Both the position numbers and the translations under genes were made by a program. A stretch of 64,000 bases of DNA from an uncultured Gammaproteobacteria bacterium (lineage in GTDB: Bacteria; Patescibacteriota; Microgenomatia; UBA8517), in the NCBI GenBank assembly GCA_964429215.1, contig CAYSAY010000002.1:33812-97811 (forward strand). Reading direction: 5' to 3'. Below, in pieces: positions 1,907 to 48,246 of this stretch. Within the stretch, counting starts at the first letter, position 1; each line of letters opens with the position of its first letter. The notes below the pieces were generated by a model that was not told the origin of the DNA, made no database searches, and worked only from the letters and a program-made list of their open reading frames with translations.

Positions 1907-2416
1907 ATGTTAACTTTAGAAAATATCAATTTAGCACAAAGAATAGTAAGTTTAATTGCGCTTTTACTTTTGTCTATTCAAATAAGTTCAAATACTAACA
2001 AAAAGCTATTTACTTTTTTTATGTATTTATTTGTTCTTATCCAACCATTTTTAATCATCTTGGCTCGATATATATTTAACAGTGATTTAGATCCTTTTTA
2101 CATGTTTACTGATCTTTGTGTTCTTTGTGGAAACAAAGCTGAATTTACAGTCAACTTCTTAAGAATTGCCTTTTACAGTGTATCCGTTGCTGTTTTTGTC
2201 CCACTAATTAAAAACTACGATAAGTTCTTGAAAAAATATTGGAAATATTCAGAAGTATTTTATTACGTAGGTTTTTATGCACTTTCAATTTATGTATTTA
2301 ATTCAAGCCCACTAATTAAATCAAATATGTTTTTACTTTACTTCTGGGGATTACAAGTATTCGTATTAGCTAAAATGATCGAAAAAATTAAGCGATCTTT
2401 TCAACCTCTCGTTTAA
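1907..2416 (+). CDS. hypothetical polytopic membrane protein
   Basis: 169 aa, several hydrophobic segments, no recognisable motif. Confidence 0.45.
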   Translation: MLTLENINLAQRIVSLIALLLLSIQISSNTNKKLFTFFMYLFVLIQPFLIILARYIFNSDLDPFYMFTDLCVLCGNKAEFTVNFLRIAFYSVSVAVFVPLIKNYDKFLKKYWKYSEVFYYVGFYALSIYVFNSSPLIKSNMFLLYFWGLQVFVLAKMIEKIKRSFQPLV

Positions 2417-2597
2417 TTGGGGTAATTTTACCTGTTTCTCGGTATTCCTTTTGCAAATCTGCAATATCTTTTGCGTATTTTTGACCTACAATAACTTGAT
2501 AAGGTGGAACAATACCTTCTACTATTGTATCTTGAGCAGACTTGCCAATCCCCATTCCAGGAAAAACTCTTGATGGTTTAGCTTGTGTTATTGTCAT
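2388..2597 (-). CDS. small hypothetical protein
   Basis: 69 aa ORF ending in TAA; no motif recognised. Confidence 0.3.
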   Translation of the reverse strand: MTITQAKPSRVFPGMGIGKSAQDTIVEGIVPPYQVIVGQKYAKDIADLQKEYRETGKITPIKREVEKIA

Positions 2598-2609
2598 AAT
2601 AGTATTATA

Positions 2610-4160
2610 TCAATCCTTTTCAAACTTTTGCAAATATTTTCTTAAAAACTCCCTCCAGTCATGATGGTCATCGTCATCGTGACCTTCATCATGCTTATTT
2701 TTGTTACCTATATTTATTTTGTAAGTGTCAGTATCTCTTCCGCTTAATTTACCTGAATACTTTTCTGTTTCCACTTTTCCATTTAAGTCATATATAAAAC
2801 TATCCAAATTATACTTTCCTTTAAGTCCTGTTATTTTTAATTTATATTTACCATTTGCAGGTTTTTCAAAAAGTAATATTTTTACAGGATTGCCTGATTT
2901 GATAGAAGGGTTTGTTAAGCTATTAATTGGTTCTTCAACAAAAACTTGAGTTGGGGCAAGTAAACCGTTTGATGTATATAATTCTAAGTTAAACTGCGGT
3001 TCAATTACAAACATCATATATGAAAGATCAGAGTGGGTTGGTGTAAAAGTATTTATGGCAAGAAAATTATTTCCATATGGAGTTAAGTCATTACGGCTTG
3101 CATATCCAGGGTCATTAATAGTATAAGTTTCGCCAATTTTTCCTGTGGCTACAATAAAATGTCCAGGCTCTTTTAAAATTGCTGGTCTATTATTATTTAA
3201 TTCATTGTCAAGATTTGCAGTTGTTGCATCTAGCCTTTTATATTCAAGTGTTGGAGTTAATAAAGTATCGTGTTGCTTTGTATACCTACTTACTGCAAGC
3301 TAATTAATAAGTCCATTTCTAATGTATCCATCCTTTTGGTTTTTAAGCCAAGTGTTAAGTGTATCGGGCATAACGTTGTGTCCGTGGTATCTCAAAACCA
3401 TAACAGCGGAAGTTAGAGCGCAACCAAATTCATGAATAGTGTTATTAGTAAACCCATATATTTTATTTTTCCACGGTTCACTATATTGTTTTAAACTCGG
3501 AACAGTTAAAAATGGACTAGCTGATGGTATTGCAGACGCAGTCGGTGAGGGAGAAGGCGAAGGCGACGGCGATGGACTTGGGGATGAGGAAGGCGAAGGA
3601 CTCGGTGTTGGGCTAGGTGATGCTGTGGGTGTAGGAGTTGGAGTGATTGTGGGTGCTATAGTTGGCGTTGTAGTCGGTGTTGGAATATCTCCTGTTCGTA
3701 TGCAATCTGTCCATGTAGCTTCATCAGGAGTTGTTCCAGGAATTACACCATACATAATTCTAATTGAGTCATAAGTTGGTGGAGTATCAAAATCAAGTCC
3801 ATATGTTCCATTTGGTAAAACGTGGTAAGTTCCTAGTGGAATTTCGTTACTCCAATAATGACCTGTTCCGCTGTTTTGTTTGCATGCAAGTGATCCATTT
3901 CCGTTTTGGTCTGCACAAAACGGATCAGAAAAGTTATTCCACGGTATTCCCAAATCAGGCGAACTGACATTTGTAATTAAAGATTGACCGTTAGCACGTA
4001 AATATTGAACAACTGCTAATTTATCAACATCTGTTGTTATGGCAAAATCAAGTCGATTGCTGTTAATTGTTGCTTCGTAAGTACAAGTGGATGCAAAGGT
4101 CGATGAAGGAAATACTGCATATAAAATGAGTATCAAAATCAATGTAATTTTGTATCTCAT
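2610..4160 (-). pseudogene. secreted C39-like cysteine peptidase with Pro/Ser/Thr linker, interrupted by one in-frame TAG at 3300-3302
   Basis: ORFs 3300..4160 and 2610..3017 are in the same frame. The 94 codons between them (3018-3299) contain no stop; checked codon by codon. Signal peptide MRYKITLILILILYAVF, a (P/S/T)n linker, catalytic Cys in GCALTSAVMVLRY before the TAG and His in GHFIVATG after it. Context NGLIN-TAG-LAV suggests an original TGG (Trp). Confidence 0.6.
3540..3690. repeat. low-complexity GC-rich repeat encoding the (Pro-Ser/Thr)n linker of the peptidase gene
   Basis: ggcgaaggcgacggcgatgg... on the + strand encodes TPTPTPTASPSPTPSPSPSSSPSPSPSPSPSP on the - strand. Confidence 0.5.
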
Positions 4161-4253: not shown

Positions 4254-5048
4254 ATGTATGATATGAAAATGAAACTAAATATAATTGGAAAACTGATGTA
4301 CTTACACGAAATTGTTTGGAATTATACAGATTGGTATAAATTGTTGATAAATCGATTGCTTCACAATGTTACTACTATTCTTAGGATGAGAAATGGTATT
4401 TTTATCTTAGGAGGAAATAGAAGTTTGATCGTAGATTTAGCCTCCGAGATATTTATTCACGAAGTATATAATCCAAAAGAGATGAAAATAAATCCAGGGG
4501 ATTTAGTTATTGATATCGGTGCAAATATTGGGGTATTTGGACTATATGCATCTAAAAACTTAGCCTCTATGGTATACGAGATTGAACCATTGGTTGAAAA
4601 TATACCTATAATTAAATCAAATTTTGAGAAGAATAATTTCAAAAATCTAAAAATTCTGAATGTTGCTGTTTCAGACAAAGATGGTTCAGACAAACTATTT
4701 ACTGCAGATTTAGATTCACATGGTCTACTTTTTGATCATAACGTCCAAGGAGGTTTAACTAAATTTAAAATCGTTAAAACAATGACTTTGGAAACCATAA
4801 TTAAAAAAAATAAAATAAATCATATTAATTTTTTAAAAATGGACTGCGAAGGAAGTGAGGGAAATATTTTTAAATCCACCAAATCAAAGACATGGAAAAT
4901 GATTGATAAGGTTGCAATTGAGTATCATGATAACGTGTCGGTTTTGAATCACCAAAATATAGTTAGTAAGCTGACTTCAAATGGGTACAAAACAAGGATT
5001 GTAGAAAACGATAATTTTTTTGGATATATATATGCATGGAGAAATTAG
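4254..5048 (+). CDS. FkbM family methyltransferase
   Basis: VIDIGANIGVFGLYAS motif typical of Methyltransf_21/FkbM; 264 aa. Confidence 0.65.
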   Translation: MYDMKMKLNIIGKLMYLHEIVWNYTDWYKLLINRLLHNVTTILRMRNGIFILGGNRSLIVDLASEIFIHEVYNPKEMKINPGDLVIDIGANIGVFGLYASKNLASMVYEIEPLVENIPIIKSNFEKNNFKNLKILNVAVSDKDGSDKLFTADLDSHGLLFDHNVQGGLTKFKIVKTMTLETIIKKNKINHINFLKMDCEGSEGNIFKSTKSKTWKMIDKVAIEYHDNVSVLNHQNIVSKLTSNGYKTRIVENDNFFGYIYAWRN

Positions 5049-5051
5049 ATT

Positions 5052-5801
5052 GTGAATTTTACTATGAACAGAAATAGAGATTTTTATAATGGTTTTCATA
5101 AATCCTCAACACTCCAAACGAAATTGATTTCTGATAACAATTTCACTTATGAAACAACACTAAAAGTTTTTAATAAACACATAAAATCATCAGATACTGT
5201 TTTGGATGTGGGATGCGGAATTGGTGTTATAAGTTTATATTATGGAAATAAATGTAAATCTGTACATGGAATTGATATTTCTGACAAGGCAATTACATTT
5301 GCAAATGAAAGTGCAAAAAAACTTAAACTTAACCAAAAGATAAAATTTGAAGTTGTTGATTTTCCAAACAAATACTTAGCAAAGAAGTTTGACAAAGTTA
5401 TTTTTTCTGAAACTTTGGAACATATTGAAAATGAAGATTTGGCTCTTCAGTCAATTTCTAAAATGTTGAATAAAAATGGTAATCTGGTTGTTACTGTCCC
5501 ATCTGTCAATTCATTTATCTATAGAATAGGCTTAGCGAAGAAGTTTGATAAAGAAGTGGGGCATTTAAGAAGATACACAGTCGATTTTTTAAAGTCAAGA
5601 TTAGAAAAGAATGGTTTTAAAGTTTTAAAAATTTATAAAAGAGAAGGACTTGTTAGAAATATTCTATTTTTTATAAAACCATTTGGATTTTTAATAAAGT
5701 TTATGAAAGGTTTTATTGGTAAATTTGTTATTTGGTTAGATTCACAAACAATTAAACTTGTTGGGGAATCTCAAATTATAATTGTTGCTACTAAAAAATA
5801 A
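5052..5801 (+). CDS. class I SAM-dependent methyltransferase
   Basis: Motif I VLDVGCGIGVISL, motif post-I DKVIFSETLEH, LVVTVP; 249 aa. Confidence 0.65.
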   Translation: MNFTMNRNRDFYNGFHKSSTLQTKLISDNNFTYETTLKVFNKHIKSSDTVLDVGCGIGVISLYYGNKCKSVHGIDISDKAITFANESAKKLKLNQKIKFEVVDFPNKYLAKKFDKVIFSETLEHIENEDLALQSISKMLNKNGNLVVTVPSVNSFIYRIGLAKKFDKEVGHLRRYTVDFLKSRLEKNGFKVLKIYKREGLVRNILFFIKPFGFLIKFMKGFIGKFVIWLDSQTIKLVGESQIIIVATKK

Positions 5802-13066: not shown

Positions 13067-13747
13067 TGTTTCATTTCCTGCAGGATCGACTGCTTTTACA
13101 TCAAATTTGTTTTCACCTTCTGTGAGTGTAGTTGTAAAGGTAAATGTTCCGTCATCTTTTAAAGAAACAAATCTATCATTTATTGTTAAGTCTGCAGATT
13201 CGTCAACTGTACCTTTTACTGTTAATTGCCTCTGTCCTGGTCCGTAATAGGATGAACCATCTTTAGGACTTTCCACAACAAGTTCTGGCTCAGTATTATC
13301 ATAAATAATTTTGTATGTTTTAGTTTGTGTACTTGAATTACCTGCAGTATCTTTCGCTATAGCATCAATTGAATTTTCTCCTTTATCTAAATTGAATACA
13401 AATGTGAATTGTCCTTCATTATTTGCAACAACTTCACTGACACTATTATTTGATCTTATTGAAATAACTGCTCCATTTTCAGAAATTCCAGTAATTTCTA
13501 GGTTTTCATCTTTAGAGAACTCTGGTATATTTTCAAATTGTGGAGGGGCAGGTGGCGTTGTGTCTGTTATTTCTATTGGTTTATTTGAATCTCCGATATT
13601 ACCTATAAAACCTGCAAATTTAACTAAAGTTGGTAAACCTAAAAATATTAAAAAAACTATAGCAATAATCGATAGTAATACATAGGTAACTGCTCTTCTA
13701 ATATTTCTCTTTTCTTCAACCGAGGCTAATCTAGAATATTTTTTCAT
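13034..13747 (-). CDS. membrane-anchored surface protein with tandem bacterial Ig-like domains
   Basis: N-terminal TM, then beta-rich repeats (TVKGTVDESADLTINDRFV..., GENKFDVKAVDPAGNETS) typical of Big-like folds. Confidence 0.45.
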   Translation of the reverse strand: MKKYSRLASVEEKRNIRRAVTYVLLSIIAIVFLIFLGLPTLVKFAGFIGNIGDSNKPIEITDTTPPAPPQFENIPEFSKDENLEITGISENGAVISIRSNNSVSEVVANNEGQFTFVFNLDKGENSIDAIAKDTAGNSSTQTKTYKIIYDNTEPELVVESPKDGSSYYGPGQRQLTVKGTVDESADLTINDRFVSLKDDGTFTFTTTLTEGENKFDVKAVDPAGNETSTSFIVNFSL

Positions 13748-19400: not shown

Positions 19401-20168
19401 ATGGATTTAAATTTTGATACAGCCTTGTTAAGTAATTATGTTAGTAATTCTCAAAAAGCAAGAATATTGACTGAAAAATGGACGTTAAATAATATTTATT
19501 GTCCTAGTTGTGGTGACTTTGTTAATGAATATGCAAACAATGCGCCCGTTGCTGATTTTTATTGCTCGAAATGTAATGAAGATTTTGAACTAAAATCGAA
19601 GTCTGGAAAATTTAACGCTTCAATTTCTGCAGGTGCATATTCTGAAATGATTAAAAGAATTAGTTCTAGAGAAAAGCCAAATTTTTTCTTTCTAGAGTAT
19701 GTTGCTAAGTTATTAAATGTGAATGATTTTTTCGTTGTCCCTAAACATTTTATTATCAAAGAAATTATCGAAGAGAGGAAACCTCTAAAAGAAACTGCAA
19801 AAAGAGCAGGTTGGGTAGGCTCAAATATAAAGTTCTCAAAAATACCAAAAGCAGGTCAGATATATTATGTAGAAAAAGGAATAGAAATTCCAAAACCAAT
19901 CGTATTGGAAAAGTGGCAAAAAACTGTATTTTTAAAGAAAGTTGATGATGTTAACGCAAAAGGTTGGATTTTGGACATTATGAATTGTATTGATTCTCTC
20001 AACAAAAAAGATTTTACTTTGCAAAATATATATGCTTTTGAAAACGATTTGTCTGTTATCCATCCTGAAAATAAAAACATAAAGCCTAAAATTAGACAGC
20101 AGTTACAATTCTTAAGAGACAAAGGCTATCTAGAATTTATCGAGGCTGGAAAATATCGACTGAGATAG
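19401..20168 (+). CDS. DpnI-like methylation-dependent restriction endonuclease (PD-(D/E)XK N-domain plus C-terminal winged helix)
   Basis: NSQKARILTEKW, CPSCG...NNAPVADFYCSKCNEDFELKSK, PNFFFLEY, and C-terminal IRQQLQFLRDKGYLEFIEAGKYRL closely resemble my recollection of the DpnI family. Confidence 0.6.
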   Translation: MDLNFDTALLSNYVSNSQKARILTEKWTLNNIYCPSCGDFVNEYANNAPVADFYCSKCNEDFELKSKSGKFNASISAGAYSEMIKRISSREKPNFFFLEYVAKLLNVNDFFVVPKHFIIKEIIEERKPLKETAKRAGWVGSNIKFSKIPKAGQIYYVEKGIEIPKPIVLEKWQKTVFLKKVDDVNAKGWILDIMNCIDSLNKKDFTLQNIYAFENDLSVIHPENKNIKPKIRQQLQFLRDKGYLEFIEAGKYRLR

Positions 20169-27290: not shown

Positions 27291-27986
27291 CTAATAGCCA
27301 ATGAATTTCTCAGTTTTCACCCTGTCTTGTGGAATCTTCATCTCATCTAAAATATCCTCCATTGCATTGGCGAATGTATTTGGTCCTACGGACCAGAACA
27401 TGCAATTTTTAATTTCCAATTTACAATTTCCAATGAATTCTAAAATTTTTAATTTATCAATTCGGCCAACTAGAGATGTATCAATATATTCAATTTTAAT
27501 AAAATCATTTTCTTTTTGCCATTTGTCTAATTCCCTTTTAAATACATGGTCAGAATCTGAATTGGAATAGATTAAAGTCATTTTAATTCCTAATTTATTA
27601 TCAATATTATATTTAATCATTGATCTAAATGGTGTTATTCCAATACCTCCTGCTAAAAAAATATTATTTGTAATATTTTTGTCAATAATAAATGCACCAA
27701 ACGGTGCGCGGGATTCGATTTCTGATCCTATCTCTAAACTATCAAGATTTTGTTTGAATTCTGATTCTTTCCTTATTCTTGTTGTAATTTGAATAAATTC
27801 TTCTGTGGGTGAATTTGCTATTGTAAATTGCTTGGTTATTTTACCTAAAGTAATATAGGCATATTGCCCTGGCTGCCAAGTAAATTTTTCACTAGGAGCA
27901 AAAAAGAATGATTTTGCGTCTTTTGCTTCAATAACTTCTTTGACAAGTTTTAAGAACATGCTAATATTATATATTATGTGCTTCAA
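27291..27986 (-). CDS. FNR-like FAD/NAD(P)-binding oxidoreductase
   Basis: QFTIANSP (RxYS-like FAD site) and LAGGIGITPF NAD(P)-binding motif. Confidence 0.55.
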   Translation of the reverse strand: MKHIIYNISMFLKLVKEVIEAKDAKSFFFAPSEKFTWQPGQYAYITLGKITKQFTIANSPTEEFIQITTRIRKESEFKQNLDSLEIGSEIESRAPFGAFIIDKNITNNIFLAGGIGITPFRSMIKYNIDNKLGIKMTLIYSNSDSDHVFKRELDKWQKENDFIKIEYIDTSLVGRIDKLKILEFIGNCKLEIKNCMFWSVGPNTFANAMEDILDEMKIPQDRVKTEKFIGY

Positions 27987-28152
27987 CTGTGGATGTGAGG
28001 AACCAGAAAACGATATGGGTAAGTCTGCTGTAGTTGGTGCTTCACTTATTGAATCTTCATTTGTAGAAATGGCAAAAGAGTGGGGAATCAGTGTGGAAGA
28101 GACAAAAGAGAACGTATATAAACTTCTTAAAAAGCAATTAAATAAAGATTAA
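27940..28152 (+). CDS. small hypothetical protein
   Basis: 70 aa ORF; real start may be the internal Met. CGCEEPE motif. Confidence 0.25.
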   Translation: MTSFKNMLILYIMCFNCGCEEPENDMGKSAVVGASLIESSFVEMAKEWGISVEETKENVYKLLKKQLNKD

Positions 28153-34125: not shown

Positions 34126-34387
34126 GGGGTCGTAGCTCAATTGGTTAGAGCGCTTCCCTGTCGATTTGTGGCAGCTCTTTCTAGCAATATTAAGATGTTA
34201 AATCAGGCTAATTCGGGGAAACCTTTAAAATGGTAATCCCGAGCTAAATCACCGATTAAATCGGTGTAAATGTGTAGAGACTATATACCTGACAACCCTA
34301 GTGGTTGATGAGATAGTCCAAGCTTTAAGGAAACTTAAAGATCGTTGCACGGAAGAGGTTGCGAGTTCGAGTCTCGTCGATCCCGCC
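34126..34387 (+). tRNA. tRNA-Asp (GUC) interrupted by a ~186 nt group I intron (34162-34347) in the anticodon loop
   Basis: Exons: GGGGUCG UA GCUC AAUUGGUUA GAGC G CUUCC CUGU | CAC GGAAG AGGUU GCGAG UUCGAGU CUCGU CGAUCCC G CC. The intron follows U and ends in G. Inside are AAUUCGGGGAAACCU and GUGUAGAGACUAUA, like the J3/4-P4 and P7 elements of small IC3 tRNA introns. A candidate IGS GUGG can pair with exon CUGU. Confidence 0.7.
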
Positions 34388-34406
34388 TAGAGTTTTACAA
34401 TTAAAT

Positions 34407-47532: not shown

Positions 47533-48246
47533 ATGGACCCTGTGATACAGGCTCAGATTGATAAAACCATGCAAGAGCTTGGTCAGTCAACTAAACCAAG
47601 AGAAAGGTCAAGGATTTCAAAAACTTCAAATGGATATATTTTCTTAATTGCTTGGGCAAATGCAAGTTTGCTTCGTGTTTTAGCTACCAGGTTTACAGAT
47701 TCACTTCCAAGATCTTTATATCGCTTAAAATCGCAACTGGATGATGCATGTAGGTCAGTTGTAGCTAATATTGAAGAAGGGTATGCAAGACAAACAACAT
47801 CTGAATATATAAATTTTTTGGGATACTCAAGAGCAAGTTTAATAGAAGTCAAAGGCGATCTTCAAAGAAGTTTGCAGGATGGTATTTTGGATTCTGCAGT
47901 AGGATCAAGTCTTTTAGATCTAAAAGTAAATTTGGCTGATTGGCATGAAGTATTGAAAAGGACCGTTGTTTCAAAGCCAAACGAAATTAAAGGATTTTGC
48001 GGGAAGTTAAAGGAACTTAGGCTAAAGCGTGGATATACCCAGAGTCCGTTATATACCTTTAAATTCCTATATAAACCTGTAGATAATTTGAAAGTACAAG
48101 ATTTAACTTTTGAAATATTTATCGAACTTGTAAACAAAACTGATTGGAATATTAGAAAATTAATAGAATCTCTTGAGAAGAAACTAAATTCCGATCAAAA
48201 ATTTTATCAAGTAGAGAAAATGCGAACATTTGAGAAATTTAAGTAA
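47533..48246 (+). CDS. four-helix-bundle protein (23S rRNA intervening-sequence protein family) with C-terminal extension
   Basis: ACRSVVANIEEGYARQTTSEYINFLGYSRASLIEVKGDLQ matches the family pattern. Confidence 0.5.
   Translation: MDPVIQAQIDKTMQELGQSTKPRERSRISKTSNGYIFLIAWANASLLRVLATRFTDSLPRSLYRLKSQLDDACRSVVANIEEGYARQTTSEYINFLGYSRASLIEVKGDLQRSLQDGILDSAVGSSLLDLKVNLADWHEVLKRTVVSKPNEIKGFCGKLKELRLKRGYTQSPLYTFKFLYKPVDNLKVQDLTFEIFIELVNKTDWNIRKLIESLEKKLNSDQKFYQVEKMRTFEKFK

Follow-up and report, generated by a model that had tools for sequence, protein, structure and literature searches.

The window, by which we mean the whole 64,000-nucleotide stretch of DNA analysed here, carries on its minus strand a gene for a secreted C39-like cysteine peptidase that is interrupted by a single in-frame amber codon, located between the codons for the catalytic Cys and His. 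Most probably the amber codon is a real and recent nonsense mutation, leaving a gene that is freshly inactivated or, at best, strongly down-expressed. As expected of a pseudogene, the stop lies inside a conserved domain that is intact in the orthologues at the same locus, and the allele was seen in five further assemblies.

Translation of 4160..2610 on the minus strand yields 517 codons, consisting of 515 sense codons, the internal TAG and the terminal TGA. In a mechanical list of open reading frames (ORFs), the gene is represented by a 286-residue ORF (3300–4160) and a 134/135-residue ORF (2610–3017), which share the same frame. The features of the disrupted gene, in window coordinates, are as follows.

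2610..4160, minus strand: whole disrupted gene, a 516-codon frame with one internal TAG, plus the terminal TGA; predicted secreted multidomain C39-like cysteine peptidase.
4089..4160, minus strand: predicted Sec signal peptide, residues 1–24, MRYKITLILILILYAVFPSSTFAS, read from the sequence; helix 4–19 in the orthologue model; cleavage site putative.
3681..4088, minus strand: N-terminal Cys-containing β-rich domain, residues 25–160, without a Pfam family.
3516..3680, minus strand: Pro/Thr/Ser-rich low-complexity linker, residues 161–215, with pLDDT <50 there in the orthologue model.
3108..3506, minus strand: C39-like (papain-fold) peptidase domain, residues 219–351, broken by the TAG; PF13529 and PF03412; the orthologue model matches 6mpz and 3erv in fold.
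3486..3488, minus strand: codon for Gln225, candidate oxyanion-hole Gln, a role that we assume from knowledge of papain and C39 enzymes; invariant in 103/103 homologues.
3420..3422, minus strand: codon (TGC) for the catalytic Cys247, 5' of the TAG; invariant in 103/103 homologues.
3300..3302, minus strand: amber codon TAG, codon 287, next base C; 'cta' on the plus strand; stands where a conserved Trp TGG was, through a single G-to-A transition.
3018..3299, minus strand: the 94 codons 3' of the TAG, with 0 stops and 0 ATG/GTG/TTG; translatable only by readthrough of the TAG.
3159..3161, minus strand: codon (CAT) for the catalytic His334, 3' of the TAG; invariant in 103/103 homologues.
3111..3113, minus strand: codon (GAC) for Asp350, candidate third triad member, 16 residues past the His; invariant in 103/103 homologues.
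2691..3047, minus strand: C-terminal all-β (Ig/CopC-like sandwich) domain, residues ~372–490; pLDDT >94 and strands 372–488 in the orthologue model.
2610–2612, minus strand: terminal TGA of the peptidase frame.

The run of 229 stop-free codons that follows the TAG has a chance probability of ~7.5e-8 at the base composition of the window, and thus represents a real coding frame; for the first 94 codons, the corresponding probability is ~1.2e-3. The first start codon past the TAG is that of Met382 (3015–3017), which lies beyond both His334 and Asp350, so the half of the domain bearing these two residues could not be made as a second polypeptide.

The peptidase domain was recognized as a single unit across the TAG. 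On residues 219–351 of the read-through translation, the Peptidase_C39_2 profile (PF13529) scored 38.0 bits against a cut-off of 24, and the Peptidase_C39 profile (PF03412) scored 29.7 bits against a cut-off of 22. When the halves were searched separately, the N-terminal half retained a PF13529 match (27.6 against 24), the only C39 profile match of either half above its cut-off; the PF13529 match was absent from the C-terminal half, and PF03412 fell below 22 in both (14.9 and 16.3). The single PF13529 match across the TAG therefore indicates one domain. Translation of 2610–4160 bears out the initial annotation, which had described a 516-codon frame open save for the TAG at 3300–3302, a stop-free stretch of 94 codons between the two ORFs (which additionally proved to be devoid of start codons), and the Cys and His motifs on opposite sides of the TAG (GCALTSAVMVL, residues 246–256, and GHFIVATG, residues 333–340). 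Its proposal of one C39-like domain split by the TAG is likewise backed by the homologue alignment and the orthologue model, in addition to the Pfam match. In the window gene, accordingly, no uninterrupted frame places Cys247 and His334 on one polypeptide, as the TAG lies between them.

Across 104 aligned sequences, Q225, W230, G246, C247, N269, H334, D350 and P351 are invariant. His334 and Asp350 are 16 residues apart, the spacing known from C39 peptidase domains. As a stand-in for the window protein, an AlphaFold model was made of the orthologue P0001, which is 61–66% identical. Its block-mean pLDDT is 93–98 over the peptidase and C-terminal domains, and a Foldseek search returned LahT150 (6mpz) as the best match (E 8e-4, probability 1.00, TM 0.68 on target), together with 3erv and PCAT1 (8vpb). 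A sequence search of the PDB found no relative, and the profile search matched mainly the lectin-like N-terminal domains of paralogues. In the orthologue model, the structural matches of the C-terminal β domain to CopC/YcnI-like proteins are weak. This domain is followed by a His/Asp-rich tail, HDEGHDDDDHHDW (residues 490–513; 2622–2690, minus strand), ahead of a short terminal helix; the tail is common to the orthologue P0002 and may bind metal.

The gene product thus belongs to the C39-like papain-fold family, in a secreted stand-alone form. It shares the papain-like fold, the Cys...His...Asp order and the 16-residue spacing of His and Asp with the C39 domains of ABC exporters (LahT150 6mpz, PCAT1 8vpb and ComA) and with the C39-like protein 3erv of B. 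anthracis. In contrast to the exporter domains, it has its own signal peptide and additional N- and C-terminal domains, and the sequence similarity is at the level of Pfam profiles only. Bacteriocin-processing C39 domains act on double-glycine leaders and are fused or adjacent to an ABC transporter; no such fusion or adjacency was found for the window gene.

A search of 5.8 billion clustered proteins retrieved ~100 clear relatives, nearly all 500–770 residues long, and those with a named source are from Woesebacteria, Microgenomates or Patescibacteria. The family is already known, under the name 'C39 family peptidase'. Its members are built of a signal peptide, a variable N-terminal module, a Pro/Thr linker, the C39-like domain and a C-terminal β domain; the N-terminal module may be a Cys-containing β domain, as here, a Kelch propeller or a DUF1080 lectin-like domain. 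The representatives from Patescibacteria/Microgenomates (A2130_04015 of Woesebacteria GWC2_33_12, which is P0003, together with P0001 and P0002) have the same architecture at 61–89% identity, the same neighbourhood of glycosyltransferases, methyltransferases and a flippase, and the invariant Gln, Cys, His and Asp. They differ from the window gene in being uninterrupted, with Trp (TGG) where the latter has TAG.

Around the disrupted gene, we found genes for guanylate kinase, methyltransferases, glycosyltransferases, an Ldh_2 enzyme and a polysaccharide flippase, as well as small ORFs. The intact orthologues P0002 (locus L006) and P0001 (locus L007) reside in the same neighbourhood and are syntenic. 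P0002 is the closest orthologue, with 87% DNA identity beginning where the Pro/Thr linker ends (window 3515–2548). Upstream of the linker, its sequence encodes an unrelated Kelch β-propeller, and the N-terminal domain of the window protein matches that of P0001 instead. This module swap at the syntenic locus (window 3516–4160 versus L006 6001–7146) suggests, on the pattern of identity, recombination in or near the low-complexity linker. On the other side of the gene, a 69-residue ORF without a Pfam match (2388–2597, minus strand) begins 13 nt past the peptidase TGA, and an ORF of 66–74 residues occupies the matching place beside both intact orthologues (L006 8065–8289 and L007 5692–5892). The 69-residue ORF may be co-transcribed with the peptidase gene, in which case the premature stop could lower its expression by polarity.

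The amber codon occupies the position of a nearly universal Trp. In 103 homologous proteins, the column of codon 287 is W in 99, F in three and P in one, and none of these proteins ends or starts there. W was found at the site in all 80 species-level genome loci from GTDB, as TGG by pattern match in 66 and as W by inspection in the other 14, and none of the 80 has an in-frame stop in the matched region. Both syntenic orthologues read AAT TGG CTT GCA, as compared to AAT TAG CTT GCA in the window. These comparisons of sequence confirm that a single G-to-A transition turned a near-invariant Trp codon, TGG, into the TAG. A paralogue or other source of gene conversion was not found in the window by tblastn. 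The initial annotation had guessed that a Trp TGG had become TAG, and had named the comparison of orthologues for W as a check; the guess proved right. It had also stated that orthologues terminating here would point to two genes, and no orthologue terminates at the site. A two-gene or split-enzyme arrangement is ruled out: 0/103 homologues end or start at this position, and no start codon precedes codon 382.

The foremost alternative to an inactivating mutation is functional readthrough or suppression, in which some ribosomes would read the TAG by means of a near-cognate tRNA, or of a suppressor tRNA not seen here, and produce full-length peptidase at a reduced level, so that the amber codon would act as an attenuator and not as a knockout. 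We consider this unlikely. In this genome, TAG serves as an ordinary terminator. The 61 long ORFs in the window end in TAA (42), TGA (10) and TAG (nine), and the TAG-ended genes, housekeeping genes among them, stop at or next to the ends of their Pfam profiles: Ldh_2 at position 331/333, DpnI_C at 69/70, Peptidase_M48 at 185/186, GatB at 147/148 and GatC at 66/66. Reassignment of TAG was therefore rejected, as the codon closes gatC, gatB, the Ldh_2 gene, the M48 peptidase gene and the DpnI-like gene at their profile ends. The DpnI-like gene is complete (19401–20168, plus strand; PF06044 and PF17726, E 1.7e-70); DpnI is a methyl-directed restriction endonuclease.

We also surveyed the window for other ORF pairs in the same frame with one stop between them, and found 12. 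In eight of these, the first start codon lies ≤5 codons past the stop and the first ATG ≤6, and they are ordinary adjacent genes, such as the methyltransferase genes at 4254–5048 and 5049–5801. The four exceptions are at 13683 (first start at codon 25), 28149 (codon 54), 46446 (codon 69) and 47862 (codon 3, with no ATG). The pairs at 13683 and 46446 are antisense to longer ORFs and were unremarkable by inspection, as was the pair at 28149, where the 231-residue product of 27291–27986 has an NAD_binding_1 domain. The pair at 47862 is on the minus strand, opposite the plus-strand ORF 47533–48246. Aside from this last pair, the survey revealed no second gene in the window that is split by a stop, and hence no other gene with an in-frame TAG, which further argues against readthrough.

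Nor did we find a dedicated decoding apparatus within the 64 kb covered. The tRNA genes detected in the 64-kb window are those for tRNA-Thr(CGU), tRNA-Gly(CCC) and an intron-containing tRNA-Asp(GUC); the window holds no tRNA with a CUA anticodon, no Pyl genes and no release-factor gene, as judged by the absence of a GGQ-containing ORF. The intron-containing tRNA at ~34126–34396 was considered as a suppressor and discarded, since its anticodon loop, CTGTCGA, reads GUC (Asp) and not CUA. This tRNA-Asp(GUC) gene (34126–34396, plus strand) has a group I intron at 34146–34340 (Rfam RF00028, 88.5 bits). Its 5' exon, GGGGTCGTAGCTCAATTGGTTAGAGCGCTTCCCTGTCGA, contains the anticodon loop with GTC, and ARAGORN misses the gene unless the intron is removed. 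A recent report describes group I introns in the tRNA-Asp/Asn genes of Patescibacteria, with which the tRNA-Asp gene of the window agrees (PMC13011429). Stimulatory RNA structure was also not found 3' of the TAG: the minimum free energy of the 126 nt from the TAG is −11.8 kcal/mol, as compared to a shuffle mean of −15.1 (z = +1.19).

Some observations are nevertheless favourable to readthrough. In E. coli, termination at TAG is generally weaker when the next base is C, and the TAG-C found here would not be a strong terminator. At least five further assemblies have the TAG allele as their consensus. The 229 downstream codons are intact and appear to have been under selection during the divergence from the closest orthologue: relative to L006 (dS ~0.55), dN/dS is 0.115 for the sequence downstream of the TAG, and 0.034 for the part of the C39 domain that precedes it. 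With other homologues as the outgroup, the lineage of the window has two private amino-acid changes downstream of the TAG and the intact orthologue has five. All of the invariant residues downstream are kept and there is no frameshift. Thus, relaxed selection or additional lesions after the TAG were not seen in dN/dS, in lineage-specific changes or in the frameshift check, implying that the mutation is young. As a sequence pattern, this absence of decay would fit a very young pseudogene, and would equally fit a gene still selected via some readthrough. However, the low dN/dS reflects history before the mutation: most of the substitutions pre-date the TAG, and all of the TAG copies are 100% identical and hence uninformative about later selection. 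Furthermore, when UAG is decoded by near-cognate tRNAs, the residue inserted is usually Gln, Tyr or Lys. As such decoding would rarely restore Trp, much of the protein made by readthrough would be altered at a core position.

In-frame stops in bacterial genes have been claimed to be read through frequently, and many of them have been argued to be transient and possibly leaky and not to mark dead genes (Belinky et al. 2021, PMC7918605). The present case resembles those of that study in being a single nonsense substitution in a conserved, intact gene with no decay, seen at the population or strain level only (PMC7918605). The criterion proposed there for possible function is an orthologous stop common to two or more species (PMC7918605); here, by contrast, the stop is shared with no other species (0/103 proteins and 0/80 loci). 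The programmed recoding of UAG, as with pyrrolysine, TAG-recoded phages and suppressor tRNAs, likewise involves an in-frame TAG inside a coding sequence. In the window gene, however, the TAG replaces Trp and not a Lys, Gln or Pyl site, it is a single occurrence, the gene is chromosomal and not of phage origin, and TAG ends the neighbouring housekeeping genes normally. In its boldest form, readthrough would mean that UAG is read at a useful rate in this Woesebacteria-like organism, with the TAG serving as a reversible expression dimmer and the downstream half still selected. We regard this as quite unlikely. If true, it would be a natural example of the model in which in-frame stops are not pseudogenes, in an ultrasmall episymbiont and for a secreted, surface-active peptidase.

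Another alternative, which appears distinctly improbable, is that the truncation is tolerated or selected, either because the secreted 286-residue fragment, with its putative N-terminal binding domain and the linker, keeps a non-catalytic role or because loss of the peptidase is adaptive, for example in escape from a host or phage. The signal peptide and the N-terminal domain are untouched, the free swapping of N-terminal modules in the family suggests that they are autonomous binding units, and the allele has persisted, being the consensus in several samples. On the other hand, none of the 103 homologues has such a truncated architecture, and ~70 residues of an incomplete papain-fold domain would be left attached, probably misfolding. 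In a clonal population, moreover, selection is indistinguishable from drift or hitch-hiking.

The allele itself recurs in independent data. The exact 286-residue product was found on five other public contigs, three from ENA (ERZ27247837, with contig k141_273057 of 241,893 bp, ERZ27247785 and ERZ27247817) and two from Logan assemblies (runs ERR3094302 and ERR3094292). The literature was searched for these run and analysis accessions, with no result. All five have the TAG and an intact downstream frame, and are 100% identical to the window over 1.5–9.1 kb. They come from two pipelines, with MEGAHIT-style k141 contigs at ENA and the Logan assemblies, and from separate runs or analyses. The TAG allele is thus the majority sequence of one clonal population across several samples. 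The version of the 516-residue protein with W is absent from a collection of 15 billion proteins. A scan for the surrounding 32 nt, with N in place of the mutated base, gave no exact match in JGI metagenome contigs or GTDB genomes; the strain is therefore absent from these collections, which allow no comparison of TGG with TAG. Single-base differences are the commonest kind of error in metagenome-assembled genomes (MAGs) and the remainder of the gene is flawless, but five independent assemblies with the TAG, the lack of a W protein on record and a context (ATTAATTAGCTTGC) that is not a homopolymer make it very unlikely that the TAG is a sequencing or assembly consensus error for a true G (TGG) in an intact gene.

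The 241,893-bp ENA contig, otherwise a perfect match, stops at window position 1053, which indicates that the window stems from yet another assembly. G+C content is 0.374 over the initial 2 kb of the window, as compared to ~0.32, and positions 1–1052 contain only doubtful ORFs; this segment could represent a repeat or a mobile element, or mark an assembly joint.

The initial annotation had left a recent nonsense mutation, a sequencing error and readthrough side by side. The first is now the best supported, the five further assemblies with the TAG speak against the second, and nothing that we found supports the third. The ancestral gene coded for a modular C39-like cysteine peptidase, predicted to be secreted and of a kind typical of Woesebacteria/Microgenomates; its signal peptide was followed by a variable N-terminal domain, the Pro/Thr linker, the C39-like domain (Gln225/Cys247/His334/Asp350) and a β-sandwich, in this order. 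In this population, a G-to-A transition changed Trp287 (TGG) to the amber codon. Under a recent nonsense mutation, translation would halt after residue 286. The resulting fragment would contain the catalytic Cys but not the His and Asp, and would thus be inactive as a peptidase. The 229 codons downstream would be intact solely because the mutation is recent, and we infer that full-length protein is not produced in any useful quantity.

It is well described that bacterial populations carry, for short periods, premature stops in genes that are otherwise intact, and the present case is an ordinary one. Were readthrough true after all, the gene would offer a natural test case of leaky amber termination in Patescibacteria, although nothing found here points there. 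The analysis also illustrates how independent public assemblies can be used, even where reads are not at hand, to check a single-base disruption in a MAG. For the annotation of this genome, the ORFs of 286 and 134/135 residues should become one disrupted C39-like peptidase gene.
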